This document shows positions 5,484 to 60,810 of a stretch of 64,000 bases of DNA, piece by piece (the first letter of the stretch is position 1; every line of letters begins with the position of its first letter). Source of the stretch: Obrimoposthia wandeli (Eukaryota). The notes under the pieces are model-generated. The model did not search any database. It was not told the DNA's origin and saw nothing but the letters and a program-made list of their open reading frames with translations. The translations under genes and the position numbers were made by a program. The stretch is taken from NCBI GenBank assembly GCA_977020255.1, contig CDROCS010001542.1:124001-188000 (forward strand). Direction: 5' to 3'.

Positions 5484-5750
5484 ACTGCTAGATTTTCTGG
5501 TTCTCTGCAACAATGATTTTTCTCGTCTCGAAACTTGTCTGATGGCGAACTGCTTCTCGGAATTGGTGAACTGCTAGACTGAAACTGCTAGATTTCCTGG
5601 TTCTCTGCAACAATGATTTCTTTCGGCTCGAACTTGTCTGATGGCGAACTGCTTCTCGGAATTGGTGAACTGCTAGACTGAAACTGCTAGATTTCCTGGT
5701 TCTCTGCAACAATGATTTCTTTCGGCTCGAACTTGTCTGATGGCGAACTG
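5484..5750. repeat. ~99-bp tandem array in 3' LTR (~3 copies; ~2 in 5' LTR at ~26921-27085)
   Basis: actgctagattt..tggttctctgcaacaatgattt recurs at 5484, 5584 and 5683. Confidence 0.85.
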
Positions 5751-6218
5751 CGAATAACGGTAAGTGTGTTTGGCTTTATATTAAATTACCTCGTCAGTTG
5801 TCTCCCGTCTTCAATCGGTTCTGCGACAATTCTCCTGATTGATATTCTTCTGCTTCGCACTGTGGATAGCGGTAATTTAATTTGTGTGTCTCGATAATTT
5901 TACCTTTTCAGTTGTCTCCTGATCTGGTTCTGCTGGCGCGACGGTGATGGCTCGATTACGATGACTGTTGCTGCTGTGTTGCTGCTGCGACACTGTGGGA
6001 ACTTGTTGCGGCGCTGTGGAAATCTGTCCAAATATGACAGTTATTCTACTAATGACTTTTACTTACTTTGATGCTGTTTGATTGCTTGGCTGCAGCTGTT
6101 TTGGCTCCCACGCTATTTGGTAATTTATTCTTCGTCAATTAATTGATTGATTCGTTTATTTCTCGTTTTCTTATTTCTTGATTAATTCTTTGGGGCCCTT
6201 TAATTTAATTTCAACCTC

Positions 6219-6337
6219 CTTATATATAACACATTGAACATGACCTTTCAAGGTCCTAATATTTAATTTGCCTTTTACTCTCATCAATTTATTTTAAATA
6301 TTATTTTCTATTTAGTTTTATAACCTTGCTTTCAAGG
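6219..6337 (-). promoter_or_regulatory. Putative LTR (U3) promoter: TATA-like box plus two conserved short palindromes
   Basis: Element-sense TATATAAG at 6219-6228, preceded by GGACCTTGAAAGGTCA (6241-6256) and CCTTGAAAGCAAGG (6324-6337); same order and similar spacing in LTRs at 29900-30035 and 59321-59440. Confidence 0.55.
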
Positions 6338-6622
6338 ATTTTATTTTTATATAAATTAGATTAATTATTTAAATTTTATCAAATCCTAATCCTAACATAT
6401 CTCGGGGGTTCTAAAAAAGTTACGTCCCCGGAACATATCGATTTTACTTTGATTTTAAGTTCATCCCTACTAATTCAAGCATTCAACTCAACAAACATGC
6501 CCAATATTTAACAAAAGTCGGTATAGATTTTTTAGGAAAAATTCAGACGCAGTCACAAATTATTCAAATTTGTATTCTATACACAATAAAAATGTAGGAC
6601 ACGGATAAAGGGATGGATTAGG

Positions 6623-7141
6623 TTAATCAATTATGTCCGGCATGTTCTGATCGTCCAGGAAGAGCATAACTTGCTCCAGGAGCAGGTCCGGAAAGGACGG
6701 AATGTCCCCGATGTATAAGGCCGTCTGCTGTTCAGGGTTCAGATGTGGGCTTTCGACAATTAAGTCAAAGTCTGAGCCGTACAGCCGATGATTTTCGATC
6801 CAGAACCGTCTGGCCTGCTGCCACGAGCGGCAGTCGCGGCTAGACCGCCACCGTTCGCGGATGGTAATTTGCACGTCTCGACGGCGCGCCAGGCATACGG
6901 AGCATCTACAGTGTTGTCCGCCAATGCAGGTTGCCAGAGAGCGATTGCCCTTTAGACGTCCTCGGCACATGAGCGCCCATTCTGAGAAGGGGGTGCGGCA
7001 CATTGGGCAAGTGATGTGCCCTGCAGATAGGGCTAGGGATCTGGCCCACTTGTACAGGCACGGCTCGTGGAATTTGTGACCACACCCGGCAGGTTTTGCC
7101 GAAGCTTGCCGGATGGTCTCGAGGCAGATTGAGCAAATCAT
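6623..7141 (-). CDS. Element-borne RING-H2 protein 3 (172 aa; putative E3 ligase)
   Basis: ATG at 7141 directly after gtgcag; C-x2-C...C-x-H-x2-H-x2-C...C-x2-C (CSIC..GCGHKFHEPC..CPMC); intact ORF. The ORF track's TTG start at 7186 is probably not the real start. Confidence 0.85.
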   Translation of the reverse strand: MICSICLETIRQASAKPAGCGHKFHEPCLYKWARSLALSAGHITCPMCRTPFSEWALMCRGRLKGNRSLATCIGGQHCRCSVCLARRRDVQITIRERWRSSRDCRSWQQARRFWIENHRLYGSDFDLIVESPHLNPEQQTALYIGDIPSFPDLLLEQVMLFLDDQNMPDIID

Positions 7142-7492
7142 CTGCACAATAATTACTTTTTTAACTTGGGGTTCAACTGGGTTCAATATTAACTTATGAA
7201 TTTAATATTTTAATTTTAATATCATAAGCCTTAGTATTCCAATCCTACCGAGTTCTGTCTTGATTTTAGGCATGTTTTTCACATTCATACTAAGCATAAA
7301 AATTGTCTTTTGGAGTTTCAGTATAATAATTACAATTTCAAATAAACAACATACATAAAAATGGTAACGGTCATTTTACAGTTTCACAAGATTGTACAAT
7401 TATGATTACAATTATGGTAGCTAATTTATCGCGTTATGCGATACACAGGGGTAGTTCATGATGTCACGTTTTAAGTCAAAAGTTACCTTCGG

Positions 7493-7798
7493 TTACTGCT
7501 GAGTGTTGGGCTGGCCTGTGCGTCGCTCCTCCACGCAGAACGAACACCAGCAGTCGCAGATGTTCTTCCAGCAGTGTACAATGGGTACCACTGCTTGGAG
7601 GCTGTCCCGGTTGTAGACATAGTGCACCGAGAAGGTTGCTCTGCACATCGGGCAGTTTGGGTAGTCGAGGGGATTGTTGTTGTTGGCGATTGGGATCCAC
7701 GTCTCGAGGCATTCGACGTGGAACTGGTGGTCGCAGTTGTTGGGTTTGGTGTAGAGGTCCACGATGTTCTCGTAGCAGATGGAACATTCTCCAGACAT
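7493..7798 (-). CDS. Element-borne RING-H2 protein 2 (101 aa)
   Basis: CSIC..NCDHQFHVEC..CPMC plus C-terminal CWKNICDCWCSFC; intact. Confidence 0.88.
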   Translation of the reverse strand: MSGECSICYENIVDLYTKPNNCDHQFHVECLETWIPIANNNNPLDYPNCPMCRATFSVHYVYNRDSLQAVVPIVHCWKNICDCWCSFCVEERRTGQPNTQQ

Positions 7799-7858
7799 TA
7801 CTGTGAGAGGGTTGGTGTTGAATTTGGGCTCGATTGAGGACTGGTGGTTGTGTGATGT

Positions 7859-8158
7859 TTACACAAAAGTGGTCGGATTTTGTCGTTCCGACAGACAGTA
7901 GTAACACCAACACTCTCTGAAATTCTTCCAACAGAATACCACCTGTACATCTACATCCTCTTGGTTGGGTTCTATCATGATGAACTTTGTGAATTGTCTT
8001 CTGCATACAGGGCAACGAGGGTATGTTGGATGTACGAATTCTCCATAAGTTCTGATCCATTTTGATAAACATTCCTCGTGATGTAAATGGTTGCAGTTTT
8101 CGGGTCTTGTTCTTCGTTCGGTTAGATCTTCCAAACATATTGGGCATTCTTCGGACAT
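7859..8158 (-). CDS. Element-borne RING-H2 protein 1 (99 aa), paralog of RING 2
   Basis: CPIC..NCNHLHHEEC..CPVC plus C-terminal CWKNFRECWCYYC; intact. Confidence 0.88.
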   Translation of the reverse strand: MSEECPICLEDLTERRTRPENCNHLHHEECLSKWIRTYGEFVHPTYPRCPVCRRQFTKFIMIEPNQEDVDVQVVFCWKNFRECWCYYCLSERQNPTTFV

Positions 8159-8282
8159 TCTAAATACATGATGACAATTAATTTCTACATGAGTTTTACA
8201 TATTTCTACTTATTTGTACAATCGCTTCTAGATATTTCTACATTTTTCACACACTGATTTATCTACAACCTCCTCTGATTTA

Positions 8283-11070
8283 TCATGTCTTGATGGGAGG
8301 TGGAGGTAAAGGTCGCAATTCCACTTCCTCCATTGTGGGTGTGTTACAGCATCGCAGTCCTTCGCATTTTCGTCGTATTCTTGGGCATACTTGACTGCCT
8401 TTCACGCACACGACTGTCAATAGGACCACTGCTGTTGACACTACTGCCATTCCAATTAGAGCATTGACCGCTGTTATTCCGCTGTCTGACGATTGATAAT
8501 CGTATTTCATTTTGTTGTTTGTCGGTTTGAATGACGTTTCCATTGGTGTTGATCGGTTTCCATGTATTATGTCCGATTTTCTAATAACTCGCGGATTTGG
8601 GTATTTTGTTTCCGGTCTAACAGGTATTATTAATTGAGATTGGAAATGATGTTTGGGATCTAGTGGAATCGTTCCTTTCACTCTTGTCCTCTTAATGATT
8701 GTACTTTGGTTTCTGGGATTGAGCTCTTTTCCTTTCACTTCTGCCTTTGTTATGACTACTTTTGGCTTCTCGGAATGGCGTTTACTTCCGTTTACCTTTG
8801 CCTTCTTTTTGATTATGATTTGCATTTTGGAATGACGTTTACTTCCTTTCACCTTTTCCTTTTTTATGATCTTGATTGGTTTTCCGGAAATGATTTTCCT
8901 GGGTTTAATACTTATACCGAGTCCACGGAATCGACGTGTCTGGTATCTTAGGGTTATGTAGAATATTTCACCTGTTATTACCATGATTATGGTAGTGGTC
9001 TCTCTAGCATTGCTGGGAATTCAGTTACATAGACATTCTGCATCAAAATGTGGTATTAACATTTGGTTTTGAATTTCGAATCTGATTCCACCATCTGGAT
9101 TGGGACACGCCACTGTTGCCTGGTCAGTTTCTAACAATCTGAAGAATATTCTAACGGAATTCCACACGGTTTTACGTCGTCTACCTGTGATCATAATCCT
9201 GTCGACAACTTTCCATATGCGCTCATCTCTAGGCAATATTAATGACTTTGTTCGGATACTTTGAATGATCCGTTTCCTCTTTGATATCGTTATCCGTAGG
9301 TATAACACCCTTTCATGATATAATAATATCAGTCGGTAGTAAGGTGTATGTTGGTCAATCTTTATTCTGACCTGTCAGATGACATACAATTTCTGATCGA
9401 CATTGTCGGTTGCTGACGTTTGTAGGTGAATGTCTACTACGTGATTTGTTTTTAGTAGAGGAATTTCTATGTATAACGCACGTATTGTATCTTGTCTCCA
9501 TTTACTGATCATGATCTCATAACCAGCCTCGGTCGTGGTGATTTGCATGATCAGCATGATTCCGATGATCGTCCGGTTCCGAATCTCAGGAACTTCTCTG
9601 GAATAACTCAAGTTACTCATATAGTACGGTCTTTCCTCGATATGTTCATATATCGTTGGCTGGTACTCTGGTGCTGGTTCATTTAGGAATGCTGGTCTTG
9701 GTATACTTGTGTTGAATTTTTGTAAATTCATTTGACCTGCTTGTCTTGCGAGATCATGACGTTTCTTTTTTGATCTCAACTCTATCTTTGTACAACAAAA
9801 CAAGATGAGTAATATTAATATTATAAATCCAATGATCAATGCCAGTATTGGATTAACCAATTCTAGAATACCATAACGTATTGCTGGTATCCCTTTACTC
9901 TTGATGGTTAATATTTTAAATTTATGTACACTTTGGTTGGACATGTCACTGAGAAGTACTATTTTAGTTTGTCCAAATGTGTAATCTTCACATGTGACAA
10001 CACTAACTCCATAATGTCCATTAAGTGTTTTCATTTCGGTCGCTGGGACTATACACATTCGTCCTGGACATCCTTTCACACACATGATCATCACGGCTCT
10101 ACTGTGAGACGTCTTGATTATTTCTAGGGTGTTGTCTAGATTTCTCAAATGTAAATTATATTCGGATAGTGTCATCAATTCAGCTTTACTGGTTGGAATG
10201 GCTTGTAGTACCAATCCAATTACTACTCCGTAGATCAATCCTTGTGCAACAGTGCACAGGGCCTTGATTGTCCTTTTGCAAAGGGTTTTGATTATCATTC
10301 GTTTGAGAGATATCTGTTTCTGGTTAGGTCGTTTTGTTGTCTGTCGTTGTTTTGACATTTCTTCGATTCCAGTTTTTCCGATAATCAACTGTACCTGTTT
10401 ACCTTGTATCATCAACTTTCCGAATCCATTTTTGGCGGACAAGCATGTTTTATGTCCTTCCATCGTTTCGATTATCACTCTCTTGCTTCCATACTCACGT
10501 GTTTTGATGACATCGCCGTTGAATATATACGTCGTACCTTTTGTATCTGCATCTTTTTTTATCTCCTTTACAATTCGTTTTCTTCGCATGCATCCGGCGA
10601 ACGTTGCTGATATTCGGTCAAGTGTGCGCTGTCGGTCAACTTCGTAGTCCATTCGGAATTGATTCAGTACTCTGTTTTGTGGATAAAATATCGCTTCATT
10701 CACTATGTTATCCTCTATACTTTCGTCTAGATACACAAGTACTTGGTTTGTTGGTCCATTGGGTCTCTTCATTTTCACAAACTGGAATCTTTTACTATCG
10801 GTTCTCATAGATGGGAGACATTTTCGGATAACCCACACATCAATTAGTCCTATCAACACTAATAGCATTATCAGTGCCGGTGTATTGTACTGTATGATGT
10901 AGTTGTTGATTTCTTTGAACCATGAACTATTTCCGTGGTTGGAGCCTATCTCTTGTGCTCCCGTTATCGGCATTAGACAACTTAACAAGCCTAGTGCTAG
11001 CAATCTTTGGTATTGATAGCTGGGCACTGTTGTTGTGGCTTCATTTGTTTCTCGTTGTTGCTTCCTCTTT
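8283..11070 (-). pseudogene. C-terminal membrane-protein cassette of polyprotein (repeated signal-peptide-like and TM segments), function unknown
   Basis: Hydrophobic segments RLLALGLLSCLMPITGA, ALIMLLVLIGLIDVWVI, LIYGVVIGLVLQAIPTSKA, ILALIIGFIILILLILFCC, IIGIMLIMQITTTEA, ALIGMAVVSTAVVLLTVVCV; ORFs 9375-11213, 9021-9308 and 8283-8984 are one frame separated by TGA codons. Confidence 0.65.
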
Positions 11071-11079
11071 TCGGAGTAT

Positions 11080-11480
11080 TTTTCTATTTCTCGAACGAGT
11101 AACGGTTTGAATTCCGTATCTGGTCTATTCTGTTTGATATAAACCATCGCTTCTTCTGGTGTATGACCATGGTACTCTACCAACAAGGATACACCTATAA
11201 TTGGAGCTAACATTGTACCTTTTTTCTGATATATCAGAACGCCGTTTCTTCTGTGACTTCGGCTTGGATGGTTTGAGTCAACTTCATCAGGTGTTGTTGT
11301 GCATCGTTTATCTCTCGATTGGAAGCATGTATGTATCGAGTTGTGTCATCTTCAGTATTTTGACACAGACTGATTATCTCATTTCCGACTTCAACAATAT
11401 TAATTACTCGGTTGATACTGTGGAACTTTAATCCAGCAGTATCTATATCTCCTGGATGACATAGAAATACTTTTGGCATT
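11080..11480 (-). pseudogene. Second, catalytically dead DSP-fold domain
   Basis: KITQIMPKVFLC...INRVINIV...(frameshift)GVLIYQKKGTMLAPIIGVSLL...TPEEAMVYIKQNRP parallels DSP1 but has YQKKGTML in place of HCQKGISR. Confidence 0.65.
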
Positions 11481-11599
11481 ATCTGCGTAATTTTGTCGAC
11501 TCCGGCTAAGAATAAACCGGTCAACAATAGTGCTTGGATGAAATTCTTTTCCTTTGGATCCTCAGGGATGTCGTCCATCCGTCTCTGTTCTTGCAACAG

Positions 11600-12010
11600 G
11601 AGTTGGTAATTTGACAATTGTCCCAAAAAATTAAGGTTTGGGTTCGCAATACTTCTTCTTTCCTGCAGGTATTTCAGCGCTTCTAGTACCTGCATTCGTC
11701 TAGTCTTTATTAGATACGCCAATACTAGGGTTGCTGATCGGGAGATTCCTTTCTGACAATGTACCAACACTTTTCCTTGGTTTTGGAGTTCTCTGTGAAG
11801 TATCTCGTTTGTTTCTACGAACCATTCGAGAAGATTAGCCTCCATTGAGGTTTTTACTCTTGATGTCATAGCTCTGATCGTCTGATATTGCGATTTGTGA
11901 TTCATTGTAACATTAATCACGTATGTTATCCTTTGTTCCAACAGTTTCTTTTCGTCTGTTGCGTCTTCCACATTTCCGAGGTATAACTTACCTGGAATGA
12001 TCTCACTCAT
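11600..12010 (-). CDS. Dual-specificity protein phosphatase domain (VH1/MKP-like), active-site motif intact
   Basis: SEIIPGKLYLGN...VLVHCQKGISRSATLVLAYL...EALKYLQERRSIANPNLNFLGQL; HCxxGxSRS at 11735-11761. Confidence 0.93.
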
Positions 12011-12370
12011 TGGTGGCATTAATTCTGACTCTTCAAGTTTTAGTCTTTCTAATCTCTTCTCTATTTGTTCGTCGATGATGGATAATTTCGCCAGTTTCTT
12101 TCCTCTCAGCATTCGTATTGCTGGAGAGATATTCATCTTTGTCTCTGATGTCTGTTCCTTTGTTGGTTCCTCTTCCGACACGGTCTCTTCTGCGGATTTA
12201 ATTCGTCTTTCTTGTATATTTTGTTTCACGAATTCTATGTTTTGTCTTTTTCTACTCTCTTTAGCGAATTCAACCTCCATGGTTCTTCCGAATCGTTCTA
12301 TTATGTTATCTTCGGATTCTGTTGATTCTGGATCGCTACTTCCAGGTTCGCTGTCTTGACTAGACTCGCT

Positions 12371-14734
12371 CTAAGGGTATTCTGGTATGTCTGTCTGAAC
12401 TGAAATTAATGAAGGGGTTAGAATAATTGAATTGACTGGTCCTGCGTATCTGTGAATCGGATACGGTATTACACTATCTTTAAGTATCTCAACTTGGAAC
12501 TGTGCTCCATAGCACATGACAATTGTTTCCAATTTACCCATGATGGACAATACATCAAAATAGGTGACATTCAGCTTAGATATCGGTGTTTTCGCATAAT
12601 TAATTAAATTGACTCGTATCTCGGTTGATGACGGCCATCGATTTTTTAGTAAAATTATAATTTCGTCGTTTATCGATGTAATCACACTTGGCGCGAATGA
12701 TACTATTTCGGCATGATATTTTGGTTGGATTGAGGTTGTCACTTGTTCTCGGATCATATTGATTCTTTGTGGTTTATTTTTAGCTTCCCACTTCCGGTAT
12801 CCGCTGTCAATGCGTAACTCTGCCGTTGCTTTAATGATTTTATTGTTTGTTACTTCCGGTTGGGTTGGCGAATGAAATCCTTCTATTACGCTCAACCTTA
12901 CAGATACTTCCGTTTGATCTGTGTTTAATTGGTGAGATTCCGGTATACTACATACAATGGTCTTTCCGTCAAAGAATTTGGTGTCCATCTGACAGATTAT
13001 CTTTTCAGTGTCAGCGTCAATTAAATGAACTCTCATGATATCTCTTTGCCCATGTGAATTACGTAATACCATTATCACATCGTGGTATTCTTGTTTGAGT
13101 CTTTTTGGTGTACCATGAAGTATGTGACCACCGGCCGGTTCTTTTTCTTCCTGACTGGCTAGTCCTGCTTCAGTACTGTCATAGTTCTGCCATGCAACTA
13201 TGTTTGGTGTCAATGTGATTTCGATTATCACTTTCTCAGTCGTAAATACATTGGAGTTTTGATGTAGTTCTGCGACTAATGTATTTCCGTCGTAGTATGA
13301 CACTCTAAGTTCGCACAGAAATTCGTTTGTTAGTGCATCTTTCACAATAACTTCTTTCGCCACATCTGTTGGTTGTGTTCTTTCGAAAACAACTATTATC
13401 TCTTCGTCTTCTTCTAATATCTCTTGTGGTGCGATGTGTCGGATTACTTCTTTTTCCTCTTGGTGTTTCATTCTGAGCATACCAATTCTCGCTGGTTTTT
13501 TCTTGCTACCACTTGTCATCATATTTATGTAGTTTCGATCACTTACCATTCGTGTCAGTTTAATGGTATTGGTATTCGGCTTCAACTTCTGTGATCTTAA
13601 CTCATATCGTGACGCGTTATCTTTATTTGGTACTAATTTACATCGATTTGCATGTACAATCATCGGTTCCTTGTTCCGATTCTCTTCGTTGATTACTTTC
13701 AAATTTGTTGAGGTTGTCTGGATCACCTTGTATCGTCCTTTGTATGGTCTATGAAGTTTAAACGATAGACCTGGTTCGATGACTGGATAAAATATAATCA
13801 CTTGATCTCCGACTCTAAATTCATGTGGTTTTGCCTTTTTGTCATATTGTTCCTTGTAACCTTCTTGATTGAATTTCAGTTTCAATCCTGCTTTAGTCCA
13901 AGCATCTTGCAATCTTTCTTTCATAACGACAATGTATTGTTCAGTTTCTAGATACTGAGATGTTGGTTCGGTCCACTCCAGATCCATTGGCATATTGTTC
14001 TGTCTGAGATACATCAGATAGAATGGTGTGTGACCCGTCGCCTCTCGAACTGAATTCCTGTAAGCATATAAACATGAAGGTAAATATTTATCCCAATCCT
14101 CTTGCTTGTCTGAGCAATAGGATTGTACCATCATACATAAAGTTTTATTAAACCTTTCTACTAGACCATCGGTTTGTGGGTGATATGGTGAAGTTTGTAA
14201 CTTCATGATTCCGAATATCTTCGATACTGCTTTTATTACTTCTCCGGTGAAGTTCTTACCTTGATCCGTTAACAACTTTCTAGGCACTCCGTATCGAAAT
14301 ATTATCTCTTCCACTAAGATCTGCGCTATTGTTTCAGCCTTCTGGTTTTGCATGGGATATGCTTCTACCCATCTCGTCATGTAGTCCGTAAATACTATGA
14401 TGTACTTGTTTCCTTTACTTGATTCTCTCAATGGTCCCAATATATATATCGCTGTGAATTCCATTGGTGCCAAGGGAACTGGCATTGGTTTCAGTAGAAC
14501 TTTAGTACGAGTTCCAGTGTCTTTTCTGGTTAAACATACTCTACATTGTTTACACCATTGTTTTATGTCGTCTTCCATACCATCCCAATGGTACTTCTCT
14601 TTGATTCTGGCTATTGTCTTTCGTCCTGACAGATGTCCTCCTAGTGTTCCATCGTGGTACTGGATCATCACTGCTGTTTTCAATGACTTCGGAATTACTA
14701 CCACTATCTTTCCGACATTGTTAACAATATACAA
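12371..14734 (-). pseudogene. pol: Integrase (HHCC, D-D35-E, GPY-like) plus long C-terminal extension
   Basis: H..GGH..GRKT...CKQC; catalytic D1 mutated to Y (AIYILGP, codon 14444-14446); LTDQGKNF; GLVERFNKTL; PYKGRY. Confidence 0.93.
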
Positions 14735-14755
14735 GATTCCTTCTTTTATCGAGTA

Positions 14756-16230
14756 TTATTTCGTCATTTCATCGTTTAGATCTCCTTTCACCAACAGTTC
14801 TTTGATTAGACTCAGTTCTTCATCTTCTTTCTGTTCTTTGATGATCTCTTTGTCTATTTTACCCGTCTTCAGCAAAATCGTTAATAGATTTGCTTCTCCT
14901 TTTTGGTCGTTGGTTTCATCTTGTTCTTCTTCTGGAATTATGTTTCCTTTCTCGTCTACATTTGTCAACCTCGACAAACAATCTGCGTTGCCATTCGACT
15001 TTCCGGTTCTATAACGGATTTCTAGGTCAAATTCGGCCAATTTTAGAAACCATCTGTTTAATCTACTCATCTCATCTCTATGTTTATACAAGAACTGTAG
15101 TGGTTTGTGATCTGTATATAGGAATACTTTTTGTCCTAGCAAGTAGTGTCTGTACTGTCTACATGAATACACTATGGCTAGACATTCCTTTTCAATAACA
15201 GAGTATCCTCTTTCGGCTCTGTTTAATCCTCTACTCGCATACGCGATGACGTGTTCTCTTCCTTCATCATCCTCTTGTCCCAATACTGCTCCTACAGCAT
15301 AGTTACTTGCATCTGTCATTAGTATGAATTGTCGGTTTATATCTGGAAACGCTAATATTGGTGCTTTTATCAGTCTTTCTTTTAAATGTTCGAACGCTTG
15401 TTGTGCTTCTTCTTCCCATATGAACTTCTCATCTTTCCTCGTCAACTTTCTCAACGGTGTTGCTATATCTGAAAAATGTTCTACAAATCGTCTATAATAG
15501 TTCGCAAGACCTAAAAAACTATGTATTTCCTTAACAGTCTTTGGCGCTAAATGCGCTTTTACTTTGTCGATCTTTGCTGGATCAGGTCGGATGCCTTCTT
15601 TCGATACTATATGTCCTAAATATGTTACTCGCTCTTTGGCCCATTCGCATTTTGTAGGTTTAACTTTTAATTTAGCGTTTTCCAGTCTTTTAAATACAAC
15701 TTCAAGATTTTTTAAATGTTCTTCGAACGTTTTAGAGAATATTATTATGTCATCGATATAAACCATCGTGTTTGCACACGATGCGAGTACAAAATTCATG
15801 CAACGCTGAAATGTTGCTGGAGCTCCTGTCAGTCCGAATGGCATTTTTTCGCATTCGTACAGTCCATCTCCGCAGGAAAAGGCTGTTTTGTGTTTGTCCT
15901 CTTCCTCTATCTCGATTTGCCAGTATCCACTCTGCAAATCCATTGTCGTAAAATAATCTGAATTACCTAATTTATCGAGCATCTCTTCGATTCTAGGTAA
16001 TGGATACACATCTTTTCTTGTGATCTTGTTCAGTTCTCTGAAATCTATACAAAATCCTTCTTTTTTACCAACACCACAGGTGCTGAGAATGGTGAAAAAC
16101 TCGGTCTAATTACTCCTGTTTTAGACATATCTTCAATCTGACTTTTTACTTCATCTTGTAACTGTAATGGTACTCGATATGGTCTTCTTCTGACTACTTT
16201 GTCTTCTGTCAGCGGTATTGTGTGTTTTAT
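14756..16230 (-). pseudogene. pol: Reverse transcriptase and RNase H (Ty3/Gypsy)
   Basis: RRPYRVP...SPFSAPVVLVKKKD / FCIDFRELN (small deletion between them), DLQSGYWQI, MPFGL, YIDD (15749-15760), TDASNYAVGAVL, EKECLAIV, TDHKPL. Confidence 0.96.
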
Positions 16231-16699
16231 TACAGGTGTTTCTCCTATGTCATACGGATTTTTTGCAATTACTTTTGGAAATTTATGTATTAGATCGAGT
16301 AATTGTTTCTTTTCTCTGGTTGTCAGTCTTTCTGATTGGATTACTATTTCTTCGTAATCATTCGTATCTTTATCGAGTTTCATAGCACACACGGTGGAAT
16401 TATCCATCTGTGCTATCTTTCCCAACCTCATTCCTCTGTATAACAGGATGTCGTTGTTGGTTGTGTTCATCAGCCTAACTGGTATTTTGTGGTTTTCAAT
16501 CAGACATACTGTACTCACAACTGGTAATTCGTATTTCTCTATGAAATCCCGTGATGGTTCGAACACAACTGGTCCTTTATCTTCTGATAATGTGTGACCT
16601 TGAATGAGAAATTGTGATCTTTTACCGATTTTTATAGGATTTTCTATAATTACATCAATTTGGTTTATTTGTCTATTTGATGTACTATCTTTCTATCTT

Positions 16700-17030
16700 G
16701 GATCTTGTAAATCGATACTTATCCCTTTGAGTTGTGATAGTACATCCATTCCTAAAATTGTAGGTTCAGGACATTCTTTCATGATTCTAACTGGTATAGT
16801 GATCGTATTACGTCCAATTATAGATGTACATGGTAATATTCCCGTCACTTTTACAGGGTCTCCATTGACCGATACTAAGAATTCATCTGGTTCTGCCATT
16901 GTTCGTTTCTGTTCCTCTGTCAAACAATCTTCACTTACTATCGAAGCTACACCACCTGTATCAATTAAGGCTTTTACTCTTAAATTATTTACTCTAATGA
17001 TAGCTGCTGGTCGCTGTGCTCCATTTATAT
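16700..17030 (-). pseudogene. Retropepsin-type aspartic protease domain 2 (canonical position before RT)
   Basis: RVKALIDTGGVASIVS (D codon at 16962)...SVNGDPVKVTG...ILGMDVL. Confidence 0.88.
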
Positions 17031-17139
17031 TTCCCATGTGGTATATTGTATTTATCGAATTATTAAACTCTGTCGGTCCACTTCCTTTGTTTGGATAGTG
17101 AAATCTAATATTTCTCACTTGTCGATCTATTATCCTTCT

Positions 17140-18100
17140 ACAAATCGGACATGATACCATTTCCTTCGCACATCTCCGACATGTTCTTACATGTCCGCAT
17201 GGTAAAAAGGCAACTTATATTTTGTTGACCATGCAGACTGCGCATTCCGGATCTTCCAGTACGTATTCTAGTTCGTTTATGTACTCTTTCTCTTTTGTTT
17301 CAATTGTACTGTCATCTTTATCTCTCAATAATTCAAAAATTAATCCGTATCCGTTTCGCATAGTTTTTATTTTTAATTCTACCAAATCTCTGATTTTTTC
17401 TGCTTCCTACGGATATAGTCTTCTCACGAATGACACTACCGGTGTGTCTTGTTGATCCAAAATATCTTTCCGTGTGATTTGGTATTCGATTACACATTCG
17501 GTTTTCTGTTCTTTTTGCTTTATTTTGTTTTTAAAAATACAAAATTCATGATGTAAAGTTTTCTTAGGTAACTCAAGAGTATATCTGTCGATAATTCGTT
17601 CTTTTTTACACTTGTGGCATTTAATTACGTATTTACCATCCTTTTTTATAGCAAAAAGTCCCTTTTTTGCCAATTTTTTAAGTCTTGGGTCTTCGAAAGT
17701 TACTTCTCGATATTGTTCGTCACATTCGTTCACTTCTCGCATAACTTCGAATATGTCTTCAATTCGGCTATTTGTTATTACTCTACCTGTTATTAGAGCT
17801 GATTCTCCTTTTGGAATCCCGTCACTGTAATCGAAATCGGGTGCTTTTCCCGTTTGGATTTCTGGTACGTTTGAAGTTTTCAGTTTCAAAAGAAATGGAC
17901 AATTTGGTGCATCTCTTTTATGACGTCTCATTGGGTTTTCATTCTTCTCCCACTTTCTAAAATTTACTCTTCACCATACGCATCGTACTACTTCCTCATG
18001 ACCATAACTACTTGTCGCGTTTAACATTTCTAAACCTGATCTTGCCATTTTACGTGCCATTCCTTTTGAATAGTACAGTTCTAGTGATCTTCGTCTATTT
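17140..18100 (-). pseudogene. Inhibitor-of-apoptosis module: BIR1 (17890-18100), degenerate BIR2 (17535-17715), C3HC4 RING (17140-17244)
   Basis: Repaired BIR1 RCVW[C]KSKFRKWEKNENPMRRHKRDAPNCPFL fits C-x2-C-x16-H-x6-C exactly (TGA at the 2nd Cys, +1 T); BIR2 REVTF..KLAKKGLF..CHKC..HHEFC; RING CAVCMVNKI*VAFLPCGHVRTCRRCAKEMVSCPICR is IAP-type. Confidence 0.88.
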
Positions 18101-18339
18101 TTCTCGATTCTCAAGGGATCTTTTTCTGACAGATTCACATATGTTATTTTCCTCCTCGTCGTAGCTTGTGGTCCGGAGTTTACATCTTTGTAGTGAAGAA
18201 TCGACTTTACTAGCGCTTCCTGTTTCCTATCTTGGTACGGATTTCCCATACGGAACATAGTGTATTTTTCCTTTTCGACTATAGGTCCTCTCAACATTTT
18301 TAACTCTCTCGCTGAACTGTCGTTCTTAAAACTCTTGTT

Positions 18340-18660
18340 GTTTGGTAATATAATTATTCCTTCAAACATCCGTATTACATCCATCCCAATCATGACTGGA
18401 CTACCACAATCTGTGAATATTCTAGCATTTAACTGCAATGCTCTTCCATCGATATTTAACGAACATTTCAGTGTTCCTTCTGACACTACATCTGTACCAT
18501 TCACGTTAACAAATGTCTGTTTTCTAGGACATACTTCTCTTAATTCTTTTGATGACAAGATTTCTTTACTCAGTACTGATACTGCAGATCCAGTATCGAC
18601 TTCGGCAAGATATTCTCTTCTGTTCAGTGTTACTGCTACTTGTGGTGGAGCATTTGGATT
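18340..18660 (-). pseudogene. Retropepsin-type aspartic protease domain 1 (extra copy)
   Basis: EYLAEVDTGSAVSVLS (D codon at 18597)...NVNGTDVVSEG...VMIGMDVI. Confidence 0.87.
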
Positions 18661-18984: not shown

Positions 18985-20866
18985 CTACTCGTTCTCGTGA
19001 TGATGGTGCATTAGATATTTTGCTAAAAATGGAAAACATCCAATTATAAGTTGCCAGGTGATTCCGGTTATCCTGTATAAACTATACGTAGACAACACCT
19101 GGGCTATAATTACCTGCACAAATTTAATTATAACATAAATACCTATGATACCCGAAAATAATTGTCCTAAAACAAGGAATTTCCCCCACATCTTTCTAAG
19201 TGTCTGATGTGCTGCTTCCTTGAAATGACTTGGCGATAATAACATATCAAAATTCGCATATCTAGCTCCTGGCGGTAATGCTCGATGTACCATCTCCGTA
19301 AGTACTCTGGCCCTTTTTACTGGAAACATTATTTCGTTCCAGGCCGCTTTTAAGTCTTTTTCATTGTACAAACCTGCGTTCTCCATATTTTCTACCGCTT
19401 CGAATTTCATTTTTCCTTTAAGATTCGTCATTTTTATCATCTCTGGAGTTTTCGTTGGCTTTCGGTCAGGTAGCGTTATTCAAAGATCATTCGTCATCTG
19501 ATATTCAGGTGCCATTATATTAGAGCAGCTGATTTCTTTAGTTGGAGTGTCTTTTGGAAGTATCATTCTCGTGATTGGTTCAACAAAGAGTTATTTTAAA
19601 TTATGCGTTACTGCCAATTCACTCGTACATCGGTTTGTTGTTCTCAACTGTACTTCTACTTTATTACACTTGTAAGTATACAATACTTCTCCCATGGTTT
19701 TAGCAAATACTCCTTCATCTAAGGGTAATAATGGTGCTACCATGTCTGGATTTGTAATAGCTAATGCTAACTTTGTTCTTACGATCTCTTTGTTTAGCTG
19801 GCAATCTCTCTCAATCATCATCCGATATAACTGTTCCATTTGCATCAATCCTTTATGATAATAAAAATAAATTTTATTATTAAAATACGTATGTAGCTGC
19901 ATATCTCTAGGTTTTAGCTTGGTTTCTGCCAATGCTATTAATTCTCTGGACAAAACTATTCCAGGATAGTTTGTAGTACTAACAGTCATTCCGCATAGCG
20001 CTTTATTTCTCTTTTTAATAAATATCAATCCTTCTTCTGTTGATGTTGCCATTAACAGTGTAGGTGTCGCCGTCATAGGAATTGATCTTGTTTCATTTTG
20101 AAATCCTTCTCCAACTTTATTATACAGGAACCCTTCTCCATCTTTATTATACAGGAACCCTTTTATTTTATTAAAGCTAATTTCTTTCAAAAATACTAAA
20201 GAGAATTGTTTCGGATTCACGTGATACACAATTGTGGATTCGCCTGTAAAACAAGATGCATCTGTCATTCTACATTCCGGATACTTCATCATTCGTTGTG
20301 TCTTTTTATCAAAATTGGCGGTCCATGTTTGTAATTCGATTTTATAAGTTACGTCCATTACTAACTCTGTTACTTTGGTACCACGCACGTTTTTTTGTTC
20401 CTCCGTCACAAGATCCATCAGGCCATCGTTGTCCTACTCTCGTGACTGTTTCGTATCGTCTCACCCCAACTTTTACATCAGGTTTGTAATTCTTGTCTAT
20501 TTATATTGTTCCTGTTCGAAATGCGTCTTCGCAATCTCTCGGAAAAACCTCATGTGGTTTGTACGGTGTGGTAGGTGTGATTTCCGACATAAAACTTCTA
20601 TGGCCACAATAGAATTCGTGATAACTTGAATGGACTGAACATTCTTTCACTTCTACTTGTATTTTATCAACATCCTGATACACAAAGTAGTTTTCAATAC
20701 CTTTAACTTCTAATTTTGACGGTTGTGATTCTGGACAGTCTTCGCTGTCAAGCAGTGAATACTTTTGTCCCATCTTTGGTATGCTACAGTCGTATGCTAT
20801 CAACCCTGATGCCTGTTGCATTCCCATAAACATTACTAGCATCATCATCATCATCGTTGTGGACAT
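18985..20866 (-). pseudogene. env: Env-like glycoprotein resembling chuvirus/Jingchuvirales (class III) fusion proteins
   Basis: Internal signal MSTTMMMMMLVMFMGMQQASG then LIAYDC (20786-20803), DGSCDG, DCQLNKEI..TKLALA..NPD, MGEVLYTYKC..VEV..R.T..C..EL.V, and C-terminal WGKFLVLGQLFSGIIGIYVIIK..TM; these match remembered chuviral G motifs. Confidence 0.8.
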
Positions 20867-20964
20867 ATTTGGTTGATTGTTTCTTTCTTTCGGACGGTAT
20901 TGTTTATTTTCCCTTTGACGATTCTCGTGACATTGCTCGTCATCGTCTTCGTTCATTTCCACAA

Positions 20965-21360
20965 TGGTTTTAGCGTAGTCACTTAATTTTGCCCAACCTC
21001 CGTTTTCGTCAATTCGTCTCTGCAATACATTCTCGATCAAATACATCGCTTCATTTATTCCTTGTTTGACTTCGTGAGGTTGGCTCGTTCGTTCCGTCAA
21101 TTTGAAACATAGATATGTGATCGCTGTAATTAACTTTTTATTTGTAGTCTGGTTTCCACATAATCTCGCTAAAACTTCACCATCGTAAAATCTATCTATT
21201 GATGCATGGTATACATGATTCGCAGTCATTCTCTTCACTGCAGACATTTGTGATCTGACTGCTTTAGTCAAATTGTCTGTTATATCGGTTGTTTCATCTT
21301 TGTACATTTTGAACAACTTCGGCTTCACTTGCCTGAGAATTCCCGATAGTATATCTTTAC
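20965..21360 (-). CDS. Bcl-2-like helical domain inside the Gag-Env ORF
   Basis: ILRQVKPKLFKMYKDETTDITDNL (BH3/alpha2-3-like), VLARLCGNQTTNKKLITAITY (divergent BH1), LQRRIDENGGWAKL (BH2-like; ENGGW at 20993-21007). Confidence 0.65.
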
Positions 21361-21511
21361 TACTTGGAGCTTCCGAATTCATATCACCTCTGATATCTTC
21401 ATTTCGCTCCGTACTATACTGCTCTAATGACGCTGCTAACTGCCCAATGCTTAGGTGTCTCTCCTCATCAGTCTGAGGTGTAGTTAGAACATTTCGTAAT
21501 ATACTTCCGTC

Positions 21512-21539
21512 CTTTCTAGGTCTTCCAGGTCCTCTTCGA
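21512..21539 (-). other. AT-hook-like motif RRGPGRPRK
   Basis: GRP core flanked by basic residues in ORF 20501-24163. Confidence 0.6.
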
Positions 21540-22044
21540 AAATACTGATACTCAGTTTGATTCTCTCCTGGATCATATGGTTCACCATTATACTGTATCT
21601 CTTGACTTGGTCCTTCTTCATGGCCAATCTCTTCGTTTTGTCGCATCATCTGCTCTGCTTGTCTATCTCTGTATGCAGCATGCCAAATTGGTGAATCCAA
21701 ATCTACAATCTCGGAGATTTCGTCTTCTCCTACTAGTTGGGTTACGTTTTCGTTTTGTCTCACTTGGTTAGCTATATCCGTGACTTCATCTTGTCTGGTT
21801 TGAATTATCTCTGGTTCTGGTGGTACTTCGACCACCGGAGTCGTCAACTCATTTTCTAGTTCCACGTCTTGTAATTCAGCTACGTACGGTTCTGGTGTGG
21901 ATGTCTTGTTCCAAGCTTCAGCTACATCATTATCTCCACTTTCGCTTGAACTGTCTAAAATTTCTATAGGCGTTTTTATCATTTCCAACGCAGAGTTTAA
22001 TATCTCAGTTAATCCTTCATTATCTACTAACTCTTGACGTTCTA

Positions 22045-22270
22045 CAGTAATGACATCAATTTTTTCCTCTAATTCATTTCCTATAGGATATCCGCACTCG
22101 ACTGGTACGTCTTCGTCATCTAGTGATCTTCCTTTATAATGGAATAACATATTCATTCCGTCTATTTCAAGTTTCTCGGCCAACTTTTTCCGAATAGTTT
22201 TCATTGTTTGGTATACGTTAAGTTTTTCATGTATGATCTGTCCGAAAATTAATCGAATCGAAATTTTCAT
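22045..22270 (-). CDS. SUMO/ubiquitin-like domain inside the Gag ORF
   Basis: MKISIRLIFGQ...TMKTIRKKLAEKLEIDGMNMLFHYKGRSLDDEDVPVECG...IDVIT resembles SUMO/Ubl beta-grasp (F.F.G..L.D.DTP...IDV); no C-terminal GG. Confidence 0.6.
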
Positions 22271-22799
22271 CGTTCCTTTTTGGTTTGATCTCTGTATGTA
22301 ACGACCATATCCCTTCAATAATCCTCGTGATACTTCTTTGTAACCCAAGTTATCATGACTATGTTTAACCAATTCTGCTTGCACTTCTTCCAATCTATGC
22401 ACTTTAATTGTTTGCAATTTGGCCAAAACTTCTGGAGCTTCACTCGTTTCATCTAACGGTTGATTCAACGTCTTCTTAGCTTCACTAATTATTTTTTTCA
22501 CATTTTCCATACTCGTAGCATTTCTTGCGACTTCTATGTGATCAGTCATAGGTTGTGCGTTACACGTTTTCTCTATTGGTGTCTCATACGCTTCTAGTAT
22601 TCGGTTCATTAAATCATTCATCTCTTCTCTCGAATGTAGACTTTTTTCGTGTTTCGACAACGTAGATGAATTCGCCATCTTTGTGTGTGGGGAATCTTTA
22701 ATTATTCCCAACATTCGTTCAAATTTACTATCACTATCTTCAAAATCTATTTCGCGTCGAAGCTCGGTCTCGCGATTCCTATCGCTGTCATCGTTTACG

Positions 22800-24822
22800 T
22801 AACTAAAATTTCCTTTCGGTTTCGGCGAACTCTCATGACTATTTGTCTTGTCAATATTATTATTATTATATCTACCGGAATTATTATATCTCTCAGCTCC
22901 TTGCTGTCCTACGTAATTATTGTATCTCTCAGCTCCTTGCTGTCTGTCTGTATAGTTATTGTATCTACCTGGTGACTGTTGTCTATCTGTATACTGATTA
23001 TTCGGTCTCCGTTGCTGCGGAGTATATCCACCACCTCTATTCCATGGCGGGGGTGAATTATATCCTCTATAATTATTTCCAAAATTATTATTACCGAAAT
23101 TATTATTTCCAAATCTGTTAGTTCCGAACTCTTTACTTCTCGTACAGTCTCTCGAATAGTGACCCATTTGTTTACACGTATAACACATTATTCTCCCTCG
23201 AATATCGATCTTATTCTGTTCATCTTCGGACTGCACTCGACGACTATTCTGTCTATTGTCGTAGCGTCCTCTAAAATCATTTCTTCGGAAGTTCGATTCA
23301 AAACCACTTCCTCGATTATTGAATCTTCCGTCACTACTTCCTGTATTATTTCCAAATCGAGAGTCACTTCGCTCTCCTCTGTTTGCGTTGTAATTCCTAT
23401 CGTCCCCTCTCCAAGGTTGGCGATTTCCTGAATTATCTCTACTAAATCTATTCCTGGAATCATCTCTATTTCTATTCCACGAATCATTACTATTTCTACC
23501 TCTTGAATCATCTCGATTCCTGTTCCAAGACTCACTATTATTTCTACCTCTCGAATCATCTCGATTCCTATTTCGGAAATTATCTCTGTTTCCGTTACTG
23601 GATTCATCTCCTTTTTCAAACTTATTTTGTCCATAATTTCGATTCTGAAAATTACTCGGTTCTGTTTTATTCACAAATACCTTTGTCTTATCGTCATCAC
23701 CTGCGGTCATTGCGTAAATTGCCAATGCTGCGTTATTTTTTATATTTTTCTCAATTTCTCTCGCCTTTCGTACGGCGTTATCAAAATCGTTTGTGTCCGA
23801 TACTGCCAATAACACTTTAATATCTTTTTTCAGTCCTCCTCTAAATATGTCTAACAAAACTTCTGCCATTTCATTTTGGTTCCGGTTATTTTCCGCTGCT
23901 TGTGCTTCTGGAGCTACAGGGTTACCTTCTAGATTTATCATTATTCTTCTTGGGTACGCTCTTGCGGCTAAGGTTCTCAGAACATACGCGTATTCATTCA
24001 CGCCTTCGTCATGTTTCTGTTTCCGTTCTCTCATGATTCGCTTGTTTACTTTTGCAAAGTCTCCCAATACCAATTTTCCAATAAAAGCATTTTCCAACGT
24101 TTCCCAATTAAAACGTTCTGCTTCTGTCAAATGTTTATACACTTCAAGTGCTAATCCGGTCAAATGTGCCTGTACACGGACACATTTTCTCTATCGTTCC
24201 ATCCTTGAACATCTGCGCAACTCGAATATTCTGCGAGGAAGTCACAAATACTTTCCTCATCTCCTTTAAACTTTGTAATCTGCAATGATCCCGAAAAGTT
24301 GGGTCTCAACGTCGCATTTAAGGCTAGTGCCAACTGTTCTGCATTCATGTCACCTACATTATTTCCTGCATTGTTATCTGCTTGAGCTCCTGGTTGAGCC
24401 ATATTTTCAACTATATCCTCCTCAACTATTTCTTCAATATTAATCACTTGAACTTCCTCAACCGCTACTGGATTGTCAATTTCAATTTCTTCTGGGTTTT
24501 GAACTTCAATAATATCAATTTCTTCTGGGTTTTGAACTTCAATAATATCAATTTCTTTTGGGTTTATTTCACCAAACAACTCAGTCAGATCAAAACTGTC
24601 GGTTGAAACTGCTGATTGATTTACGTCTCTTTCTGATACGTTTTCTTCGATTCTAGTCTTTTCTATTACTTTGTTATCTGTTTGGGAAACCTGTTCAATT
24701 CGGTTAAATTTATTATTATTTATCTCTTCCTGGGGAATCTGACTTTGTCTTGTAGTATTAAACGCGGGTCCTTTTCTATTATCCGTTGTCTTATCAATTA
24801 TGTATTCGTTTACGATATCAAT
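22800..24822 (-). pseudogene. gag: Gag (acidic leader, capsid-like region, R/D/N-rich nucleocapsid with one CCHC knuckle)
   Basis: First ATG at 24402 (MAQPG..); QITKFKGDEESICDFL..Y...GWNDRE; one-A deletion near 24190; CYTCKQMGHYSRDC at 23144-23185. Confidence 0.9.
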
Positions 24823-25574: not shown

Positions 25575-27722
25575 TGTTGGGGTTTCTATATGAAACTTAT
25601 AGATCCTCTTGAATGCGGAGGGCCCCAACGTGAGTCTATAGAAGCAGGTCTTAGGGATGGTTGTGGCCTACTTAATGTTATAGTTGCCTGTCTCAATGCT
25701 TATCTGAAGGTGTTTGTTTTTTGATGTCTCTTAATCTGAAGGGTTTAGAACAATGCTTTCTAATGTAGGAAATCGTTTATTGTTAACACACTAGACTAAA
25801 ACAAAACAATACGTTTACGTACGTATTTCTAAAAAGTTGTAGTAAAATTCCTAAGACTTCTGAAAGTCTCTACACCAGTGGGGATGAACCACGTATCGAT
25901 TTTAGGTTTTAGGGTTGGTTGACGCTAGAGTCTTCACTCTAAAATTGCGGCAAGTTCGCAGAGTGTTGCTCTAAAGTATAAGTAGTTTGCCGAGCTGTTG
26001 CTCTAACACGGGATGAAGTTCAGTAGAGTTGCTGCTCTAATTTATAGAGTCTTTCCGAAATTTCACTTTAATTACTAGATAAAAGTTTCCTCAGTAATTT
26101 AACAAATTCCAATACAAATGTTTTAGTAAAATTTACGCGGTATTTTAACAATTTTTTAATTCAAATGCTTTAGTAAAATATACTCGGTATTTTAACAATT
26201 TTTAATTCAAAGACTTCAAAATATACTCGGTATTTTAACAATTTTTTAATTCAAAGACTTTACTAAAATGTACTCGGTATTTCAACAATTTTTAATTCAA
26301 AGACTTTAAAATATACTCGGTATTTTAACAATTTTTTAATTCAAAGGCTTTAGTAAAATATACTCGGTATTTTAACAATTTTTTAATTCAAAGACTTTAC
26401 TAAAATGTACTCGGTATTTCAACAATTTTTAATTCAAAGACTTTAAAATATACTCGGTATTTTAACAATTTTTTAATTCAAAGACTTTACTAAAATGTAC
26501 TCGGTATTTTAACAAATTTTAATTCAAAGGCTTTACTAAAATGTACTCAGTATCTCAACAATTCTTTAATTCAAAGGCTTTACTAAAATGTACTCAGTAT
26601 CTCAACAATTCTTTAATTCAAAGGCTTTACTAAAATGTACTCAGTATCTCAACAATCTTTACTCTTTGTCGTGTGCGGCTCACCTTCCAATCTGCAGACA
26701 ATTCCGGAGTGCAAGATCCGTGCGATGCGCTGTCCGCTTGCTGGTTCGGTAGCGCAGTAGAGAGTTGTCGGATAGATGGCTCGATCCGAATCCTTTCTAG
26801 TAATTCGAATAATTCTGTTGAAAATTTTCGTGATTTATCTCCTAGTTTCTTCTGTCTTTCTTCTAACGACTCTCGAAATTGGCGAGAGGAAAACTGCTTG
26901 ATTGAACTGCAAGACTGGAAACTGCTAGATTTTCTGGTTCTCTGCAACAATGATTTTTCTCGTCTCGAAACTTGTCTGATGGCGAACTGCTTCTCGGAAT
27001 TGGCGAACTGCTAGACTGAAACTGCTAGATTTCCTGGTTCTCTGCAACAATGATTTCTTTCGGCTCGAACTTGTCTGATGGCGAACAGCGAATAACGGTA
27101 AGTGTGTTTGGCTTTATATTAAATTACCTCGTCAGTTGTCTCCCGTCTTCAATCGGTTCTGCGACAATTCTCCTGATTGATATTCTTCTGCTTCGCACTG
27201 TGGATAGCGGTAATTTAATTTGTGTGTCTCGATAATTTTACCTTTTCAGTTGTCTCCTGATCTGGTTCTGCTGGCGCGACGGTGATGGCTCGATTACGAT
27301 GACTGTTGCTGCTGTGTTGCTGCTGCGACACTGTGGGAACTTGTTGCGGCGCTGTGGAAATCTGTCCAAATATGACAGTTATTCTACTAATGACTTTTAC
27401 TTACTTTGATGCTGTTTGATTGCTTGGCTGCAGCTGTTTTGGCTCCCACGCTATTTGGTAATTTATTCTTCGTCAATTAATTGATTGATTCGTTTATTTC
27501 TCGTTTTCTTATTTCTTGATTAATTCTTTGGGGCCCTTTAATTTAATTTCAACCTCCTTATATATAACACATTGAACATGACCTTTCAAGGTCCTAATAT
27601 TTAATTTGCCTTTTACTCTCATCAATTTATTTTAAATATTATTTTCTATTTAGTTTTATAACCTTGCTTTCAAGGATTTTATTTTTATATAAATTAGATT
27701 AATTATTTAAATTTTATCAAAT
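25575..27722 (-). repeat. 5' LTR of giant element (last 13 bp displaced to 30098-30110 by nested solo LTR)
   Basis: Matches 4456-6384; continues as aaat-cctaatcctaaca after 30093. Confidence 0.95.
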
Positions 27723-29120: not shown

Positions 29121-29187
29121 GGTGTTTATACCTTTATTGTTTTGACTTGGTATATTGACGATCTCTGGAGATGGTCACTTGACGATC

Positions 29188-29549: not shown

Positions 29550-30110
29550 GCCGTCCACTTCTGTAGCGTGTAATTTATATAGACTCAATTTTAGGAATAC
29601 TTACTAAGTTTGTTTCGCTGACTGTGTGTCTTGGCGCGACAATGATTTCTCTTCGTGTGTAGGTATGTTCTCTTCAGTGACTTATATAGTCGATTGAGAT
29701 CAGGCAATTTTCACCTGGCTTCTTGAATATCGGAGGCAATTTTCACCTGGCTCTTAAAGTCGGTGAAATTAAAATTTTCAAATAAAAATAATATGCCTAC
29801 GTTTTGCTGACTCTTGACTTCTTCTTCTTAAATTTTCCTTGCTTAATTTTCTTAATTAGTTTTGCTTATTTGTCTTTTTGCACTTTTAGGTTAATTAACT
29901 TTAAACTTATATACACATTTCACACTATACACGACCTTCGTGGTCCTCCTAATTTTTACCCTAAATTCCACTAATTTTAATTCTAAAACTAAAATTAATA
30001 TTTTAATTTAATTTTCAACCTTGCTTTCAAGGATTTTTATTTTAGTATTTAATCGACTAAAATATTTAAATTTCTTAATTCTCAAACCTAACAAAATCCT
30101 AATCCTAACA

Positions 30111-60802: not shown

Positions 60803-60810
60803 TATTAAAT

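Follow-up and report, generated by a model that had tools for sequence, protein, structure and literature searches.

The window, a stretch of 64,000 nucleotides from Obrimoposthia wandeli (assembly GCA_977020255.1, contig CDROCS010001542.1, positions 124,001 to 188,000), contains a giant Ty3/Gypsy element with an IAP fused into its polyprotein. The LTR element lies at 4456-30110, has TG...CA ends, and is about 23.3 kb long once an inserted LTR is subtracted. A target-site duplication, GCTT, is found at 4452-4455 and 30111-30114. The LTR pair has 1819 matches and 10 mismatches outside gaps, or 99.45% identity. The domain order is Gag (CCHC), a weak ubiquitin-like region, a weak Bcl-2-like region, a Monjiviricetes-type fusion glycoprotein, protease, IAP, protease, spacer, RT, RNase H, integrase, phosphatase, and three RING ORFs. 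In-frame stops number at least ten in the element, and its frame changes about four times. Its parts are listed here by window position.

4456..6397, minus strand: 3' LTR (TG...CA), 99.45% identical to the 5' LTR
6623..12370, minus strand: accessory tail with a dual-specificity phosphatase (DSPc, E=9.5e-33), a region without assignment, and three RING-finger ORFs (zf-RING_2, E=5.7e-10, 7.7e-9, and 2.2e-8)
12371..16692, minus strand: conserved spacer (dUTPase-like position), RT (RVT_1, 7.6e-36), RNase H (RT_RNaseH, 3.2e-39), and integrase (rve, 4.9e-11) with an extension; contains stops and a frame change
16723..17016, minus strand: aspartyl protease 2, DTG at 16962 (PF13975, E=3.7e-7; RVP, E=9.9e-6)
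17092..17097, minus strand: candidate protease cut, a Tyr-Pro bond 15 residues past the last RING Cys (predicted from sequence)
17140..17244, minus strand: IAP-type RING (C3HC4) with a stop at 17217-17215 (PF13920, E=4.8e-13 with X at the stop; best solved relative cIAP1; pN/pS 0.14-0.15)
17322..17475, minus strand: UBA-like three-helix bundle with a stop at 17409-17407 (XIAP UBA 2kna, Z 5.5; profile-profile 94.0%)
17539..17740, minus strand: divergent second BIR-like repeat, C-x2-C-x18-H-x3-C (profile-profile 89.4%, E=2.1e-6; pN/pS 0.23-0.34)
17888..18105, minus strand: BIR1 (PF00653, E=2.2e-8 with X at the stop), with a stop at 17973-17971 within the zinc motif
18370..18636, minus strand: aspartyl protease 1, DTG at 18597 (PF13975, E=2.1e-5); siblings also show two protease stretches
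18985..20433, minus strand: C-terminal part of the envelope, Monjiviricetes-type fusion glycoprotein, in the IAP frame and broken by stops (PF24664, E=4.9e-30 and 3.5e-27)
20501..24822, minus strand: Gag with a CCHC knuckle (zf-CCHC, E=6.8e-6), ubiquitin-like region, weak Bcl-2-like region, and start of the envelope (fusion glycoprotein, E=3.2e-14); frame change near 24190
25575..27722, minus strand: main part of the 5' LTR (LTR alignment)
30098..30110, minus strand: outer tip of the 5' LTR, separated from the main part by an inserted related LTR (27723-30093, AAAT duplicated)

The LTRs and the interior of the element give different impressions of its age. With LTRs that are 99.45% identical and an interior that holds at least ten stops, the damage exceeds what so young an insertion should show. 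This hints at a copy of an already broken template or at homogenisation of the LTRs. The inserted LTR at 27723-30093 is related (83% over the first 340 bp) and looks like a solo LTR; it entered the 5' LTR 13 bp from the outer end and is accompanied by a duplicated AAAT. In the tail, the best solved relative of the phosphatase is DUSP10.

The IAP module of the window copy reads in a single frame and is interrupted by three stops. It occupies about 18100-17100 of the minus strand, where a BIR is followed by a divergent second BIR, then by a UBA-like helical bundle, and finally by an IAP-type RING. The frame of the module spans the envelope tail, protease 1, the IAP, and protease 2 with no frameshift, so the removal of an extra T that the initial annotation had proposed is unnecessary. 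In BIR1, the place of the second zinc ligand is taken by the TGA at 17973-17971, behind which the x16-H-x6-C spacing is exact; this bears out the earlier reading of a BIR with a stop in place of a Cys. The TAG at 17409-17407 sits in the helical linker and the TAA at 17217-17215 in the RING. The linker and the RING with its TAA were found where that annotation had placed them; the TAG had been overlooked, and with three stops the module cannot be called complete, as it had been. With X at the stops, the BIR (PF00653, E=2.2e-8) and the RING (zf-C3HC4_3, PF13920, E=4.8e-13) both pass the curated cut-off in the HMMER check that had been suggested. The second repeat has the zinc pattern C-x2-C-x18-H-x3-C, and alone it is below the Pfam cut-off (E=0.011). 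At the gene level the RING is not at a free C-terminus, as it is fused onward to protease 2. The module had also been described as in frame with protease and RT. This holds for the protease, of which there are two flanking the IAP, and for RT in the siblings; in the window copy the IAP frame meets a stop at 16695 and changes near 16050, so that RT lies outside it. With its stops, the window copy is dead and makes no IAP.

The sibling copies show that the IAP fusion is the normal state of the family. Of 4,728 candidates in the genome, 40 were scored, and all 40 have an identity of 94-100%. Among the 29 siblings fetched, 27 keep the BIR zinc motif in full, including the Cys lost at 17971. Seven of the 29 are open from protease 1 through protease 2, and two of these seven are open over the whole 5-kb stretch from envelope to RNase H. 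The longest open frames that hold the IAP have 5,026 aa (103 matches) and 5,262 aa (111 matches), and all 12 loci fetched from the 103-match set belong to the family of the window element. Two of the window's three module stops occur in none of the 29 siblings and the third in two of them. Since the stops are mostly private and siblings are open, the fusion is normal for the family and the window copy has decayed. The proposal that the IAP is made along with Pol thus suits the open siblings and fails for the broken window copy. Near 17540, at the end of the second repeat, there is a length polymorphism of three codons, with the longer form in 16 of the 29 siblings. The shorter spacing of the window copy also occurs in distant homologues.

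Selection has acted differently on the two ends of the module. By pN/pS, which was obtained from pairwise counts among three subfamily groups, the RING (0.14-0.15), the UBA-like domain (0.16-0.19), and the second repeat (0.23-0.34) are under purifying selection, with bootstrap intervals all below 1. The protease values of 0.10-0.30 are similar to those of these three domains. In contrast, BIR1 has a pN/pS of 0.67-0.78 with intervals that include 1, and by this measure it is fast-evolving. The same trend is seen in a set with fewer copies.

The layout of BIR, BIR-like repeat, UBA-like domain, and RING is that of cellular IAPs. The structure model is of an unbroken sibling; it has a mean pLDDT of 53.8 and three confident islands, and its RING part is of low confidence. 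BIR1 of this model matches BIR folds with Z up to 11.2 (rmsd 2.6, 81 aligned), and Foldseek also finds a match. The best structural row for the helical part is the XIAP UBA domain (2kna; Z 5.5, rmsd 2.5, 58 aligned), on a scale where unrelated bundles reach Z 5.0. The family profile of the helical part matches a profile of 36 motif-picked cellular UBA segments at 94.0%, and 20 shuffles stay at or below 1.5%. Single element sequences give E values of 1-2 against the UBA profile, which is no score, and PF21290 (UBA) is uninformative, as it matched nothing anywhere, controls included. The helical part is called UBA-like from the family profile and a middling Z score. The divergent second BIR that had been noticed after the first is upheld by its profile, which matches the cellular BIR profile at 89.4% (E=2.1e-6; 20 column shuffles at or below 0.8%, RING control 0.5%). 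Its compact zinc motif recurs in homologues. The single-sequence fold of this repeat has a pLDDT of 37.8, and in the full sibling model the listed structural rows do not span it. The best solved relative of the RING is cIAP1 (E=2.1e-15).

The binding groove of BIR1 is altered. The Trp and the first acid are kept, and there is an Arg directly before the zinc His and an Asp three residues after it. In most BIRs of the comparison table, the first of these two positions is an acid or Gln and the second is aromatic. The Arg presumably occupies the groove position at which interfering residues have been described, and it is doubtful that BIR1 binds the N-termini of caspases or their antagonists. The residues named as interfering with the binding of caspase and antagonist termini are K, R, L, and V, according to the available portion of PMC13159474.

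The element resembles the Burro elements of planarians. In Burro/GYPSM1, which are giant Gypsy elements of planarians, a single ORF of about 4,900-5,100 aa contains Gag, SUMO-like and BCL2-like regions, an in-frame envelope, BIR, protease, a dUTPase-like domain, and RT, as far as they are described in the available text of PMC6431247. The same text gives the envelope as mononegavirus-like, located between gag and pol, and the copy number as very high. The BIR of these elements was described in 2007-2019. Burro elements are also abundant and expressed in the model species, according to the parts of PMC8532177 and PMC11410931 that are available. Like Burro1/GYPSM1 and Burro2-4, the element described here is a many-copy giant LTR element with one huge ORF, an in-frame envelope, BIR, protease, spacer, RT, RNase H, and integrase. 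The ubiquitin-like (E=0.009-0.02) and Bcl-2-like (E=0.07) regions follow each other in the same order as in Burro; both are below the Pfam cut-off, and the Bcl-2-like part is without PDB support. The spacer between protease 2 and RT is present, with 27-41% identity in relatives and no Pfam match. Unlike Burro1, the window ORFs have no match to MATH/TRAF or ankyrin domains (Pfam, 20 window pieces scanned). The twin proteases around the IAP, the phosphatase, and the three RING ORFs of the tail differ as well; none of these is mentioned in the available text of PMC6431247. As judged from descriptions, and with no named Burro sequence among the long polyproteins listed, the element is Burro-like by architecture and is not equated with Burro1.

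An IAP in the polyprotein of a flatworm retroelement is already known and has recently been tied to stem-cell survival. Lee et al. 2026 (Dev Cell) found that the BIR-RING region of Burro1 protects stem cells from caspase-mediated death, as reported in the available part of PMC13465017. This B-IAP, like the one described here, consists of a BIR and a RING inside a giant planarian retroelement. The second BIR-like repeat, the UBA-like domain, and the kinship with Polintons are not found in that part of PMC13465017, and the original paper may cover them. What is added by the present analysis is the Polinton kinship, a twin-protease slot with different cargo in relatives, and the contrast in selection between BIR1 and the ligase half.

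The slot between the proteases holds other content in related polyproteins. The envelope family is found in 13 of the 120 long polyproteins listed, and eight of these 13 have two proteases before RT. In those eight, about 180-490 residues lie between the proteases, and their content is different, C2H2 fingers being one example. A precomputed BIR is present in none of the 120, and a BIR scored in none of the 13 giant polyproteins with the envelope in frame. The occurrence of twin proteases without an IAP in relatives suggests that the proteases are older than the IAP, which would have filled a variable slot. A third protease domain follows the integrase in six of the 13 envelope-in-frame polyproteins (P0328, P0330, P0337, P0341, P0342, and P0344).

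The closest relatives of the element's IAP are carried by Polintons in the same genome. A BIR search of the genome, in which 150 of 12,110 candidates were scored, led for the most part to IAP ORFs that stand alone and are open over 341 or 301 codons. Among the best-scoring 50 BIR loci, all of which were fetched, 48 match one of two stand-alone IAP types at 71-100%. A Polinton gene lies within the 3-kb locus in 18 of these 48, and all four of the long contexts have a packaging ATPase, integrase, capsid, and protein-primed polymerase, which identifies them as Polintons. The genes were recognized as DNA_pol_B_2, Pox_A32, and rve, and the capsid by a neighbour cluster at 0.98 that has a DJR-like family on 30% of its members. 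The element IAP matches a Polinton IAP end to end (E=4e-42, 31% over 344 columns), and its match to a baculovirus IAP is E=5e-13 at 24%. The similarity to the Polinton IAPs takes in the whole module and adjoining residues and stops where the free gene ends. The leader, the UBA-like region, and the tail of the RING are common to both kinds. The Polinton IAPs differ in being free ORFs of about 300-340 codons that end after the RING, and in one Polinton family most of the second repeat is gone. Polinton IAPs and the retroelement family occur on common contigs. IAP genes in Polinton-type elements (adintovirus) have been noted before, as given in the available part of PMC8502044. No report of a link between Burro and Polinton IAPs was found in the literature searched, a weak negative that does not cover Lee et al. 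2026.

Several other features concern both kinds of element or the Polintons alone. A phosphatase lies beside the IAP in one Polinton family too, and it is 28-32% identical to the tail phosphatase of the element. A Polinton extending from L065:7755 to L067:2039 is bounded by inverted terminal repeats that are about 4 kb long and 99.8-99.9% identical, each with the IAP gene, and it is nested in a Polinton of the other IAP-bearing family. Within the window, 55894-57297 is a decayed fragment of a Polinton polymerase, up to 85% identical to one IAP-bearing Polinton family.

Phylogenetic analysis separates the element and Polinton IAPs from other IAPs. In the BIR+RING tree (30 rows, 153 columns), the element IAPs, the Polinton IAPs, and four database proteins are on one side of a branch with support of 100/99. 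Ten of the 40 rows were dropped from this tree by the motif filter (eight insect IAPs missed and two host frames without a RING). The grouping of element and Polinton IAPs has support of 90 in the BIR-only tree. In a quick tree of the RING only (120 rows, 68 columns, with 45 rows dropped by the motif filter), the clade has an SH-aLRT of 99 and a long stem. By alignment and tree, the element and the Polintons of this genome are shown to share a common IAP lineage. The inner forks of the clade are weak, and the four database proteins (P0001, P0002, P0004, and P0060) lie within it. The phylogeny that had been suggested for finding the donor speaks against a baculovirus, as detailed below, and gives the Polinton IAPs as nearest. 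Elsewhere, viral contigs contain three distant IAP loci. Two metagenome scans recovered no context for P0001 or for the Polinton IAP. A word-indexed protein search with the module gave no match among 1,164 candidates, but the full HMMER library search did match.

The IAP may have passed directly between the two kinds of element, the retroelement having received it from a co-resident Polinton or having passed it to one. We rate this as only a little short of an even chance. The predominance of the two stand-alone types (48 of the best-scoring 50 BIR loci), the Polinton nature of all four long contexts, and the similarity over the whole module up to the end of the free gene all point this way. 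Related elements are without an IAP, suggesting that the retroelement gained it late. RING-bearing IAPs are reported as lost in the flatworms sampled in PMC13159474, but in the portion available these flatworms may not include planarians, since neither 'planarian' nor 'Schmidtea' is named. With just 31% identity between element and Polinton IAPs, any transfer must be old. The weak inner forks and the four additional members of the clade mean that the tree does not settle nesting or direction.

Alternatively, the retroelement and the Polintons could each have captured the gene independently from a RING-IAP of the flatworm host that has since disappeared, has diverged, or is concealed by its introns. 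This is a serious possibility that we hold at below even odds. The presence of a UBA-like domain suggests that the ancestor was a cellular gene, and within the clade it is P0002, the deepest member, whose BIR groove is the most ordinary and whose UBA score is the best. Cellular RING-IAPs (cIAP1, XIAP, mollusc, and insect) have the same BIR-BIR-UBA-RING order; the element IAP differs from them in being intronless, fused at both ends, and placed in a separate long-stemmed clade, with a compacted second BIR and an altered BIR1 groove. A host gene could have been passed over, as the genome searches scored 150 of 12,110, 98 of 20,270, and 88 of 20,171 candidates, and split exons score poorly. Against this, no host-like RING-IAP surfaced: the best matches to a cellular IAP and to P0002 (best 98 of 20,270 and 88 of 20,171) are 31-43% identical and element-borne where checked. 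Two non-element BIR loci were found among the 50 checked, and both are single-BIR frames. These frames, L031:1381-1872 and L032:1450-1686, are unlike the element IAPs; we take them to be survivin-like and BIRC6-like, and they are probably host IAP genes.

The initial annotation had called the module baculovirus-style, and an origin from a baculovirus or insect IAP would fit the two BIR-type repeats with a RING and the language-model neighbours, which include arthropod IAP clusters at 0.91-0.93, but it is very improbable given that a grouping with two baculovirus IAPs fails the AU test (p=8.3e-5), the BIR-only tree keeps 9 insect and 3 insect-virus IAPs apart, the linker is UBA-like as in cellular IAPs, and the host is not an insect, judged by its mitochondrial code. 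Baculovirus IAPs do share the virus-like carrier and the domain pair; they differ in being free genes of another clade, with no UBA signal in the two tested. On these comparisons the IAP of the element is not of baculoviral origin.

Overall, the favored reading is that the window holds a decayed member of a Burro-like giant Ty3/Gypsy family with a high copy number, and that intact members of this family make a polyprotein with a protease-released, ligase-active, cell-sparing IAP (probability roughly 0.7). Working members of the family, judged by the open frames in siblings, would translate a single polyprotein of more than 5,000 residues, from Gag through integrase and beyond. Its order would be Gag, ubiquitin-like, Bcl-2-like, envelope, protease 1, IAP, protease 2, spacer, RT, RNase H, and integrase, with the IAP in the variable slot between twin proteases that, to judge from the relatives, predate it. 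Release would leave the RING with a free end. IAP RINGs need a free C-terminal tail, and proteases of the retroviral type cleave at aromatic-Pro bonds. The element has a Tyr-Pro bond 15 residues past the last RING Cys; free homologues end 11-29 residues past this Cys, with 13 residues in most of the cellular ones and 18 in the two Polinton IAPs. We infer that the element's protease would excise the IAP at this bond. The freed IAP would then act mainly as a ubiquitin ligase on death-pathway proteins and keep the expressing cell alive, as its domain content and the case of Burro1 suggest. By analogy, it may work like the IAP of Burro1.

A different use of the same ligase is conceivable. The module could direct ubiquitination against other host defences, such as signalling or silencing proteins, with the fast-changing BIR1 as the target binder and no block of apoptosis. 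The altered BIR1 groove and the compacted second repeat are consistent with this idea, as is the distribution of constraint, which is strongest on the RING and UBA-like domain and weakest on BIR1. The element also has three further RING ORFs, a phosphatase, and a ubiquitin-like region. We consider this use unlikely, because the IAP of Burro1 is reported as a guard against caspase-mediated death (PMC13465017, available part) and the same polyprotein contains a weak Bcl-2-like region.

The favored reading of a released, cell-sparing IAP can be extended to a broader scenario that we regard as rather unlikely in its entirety. In this scenario the IAP was swapped between a giant enveloped retroelement and Polintons within one flatworm lineage, and was slotted between twin proteases for release as a free ligase. 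The whole RING-IAP supply of the animal might then come from mobile elements, because no cellular RING-IAP surfaced. If the exchange is real, a gene has moved between a retroelement and an element resembling a DNA virus, and it would become possible to test directly, across triclad genomes, where the Burro IAP came from.

The assembly mixes the host with other organisms. Two of three stretches of mitochondrial-type COX1 read AAA as Asn and ATA as Ile, which is the flatworm/echinoderm code, and the third reads the common invertebrate code. The assembly holds many stop-free, bacterial-looking COX1 genes along with a second mitochondrial type that has another code.

Other repeats are found elsewhere in the window. 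A second, inverted member of the family begins at 60447-64000 and continues into L061-L062. Over RT-integrase (16000-14500) its identity to the window element is about 99%, and in other parts it is mostly 74-94%. Candidate readings of this patchy identity are recombination, gene conversion, or the spread of defective copies. The two members have a common stop between RNase H and integrase that is found in 4 of 30 loci. A programmed stop at this point is ruled out, as 25 of the 30 loci are open and one is unreadable. At 46037-47627 there is a small DNA transposon, presumably Tc1/mariner-like, with inverted repeats of 223 nt (99%) and ORFs for DDE_3 and a helix-turn-helix protein.
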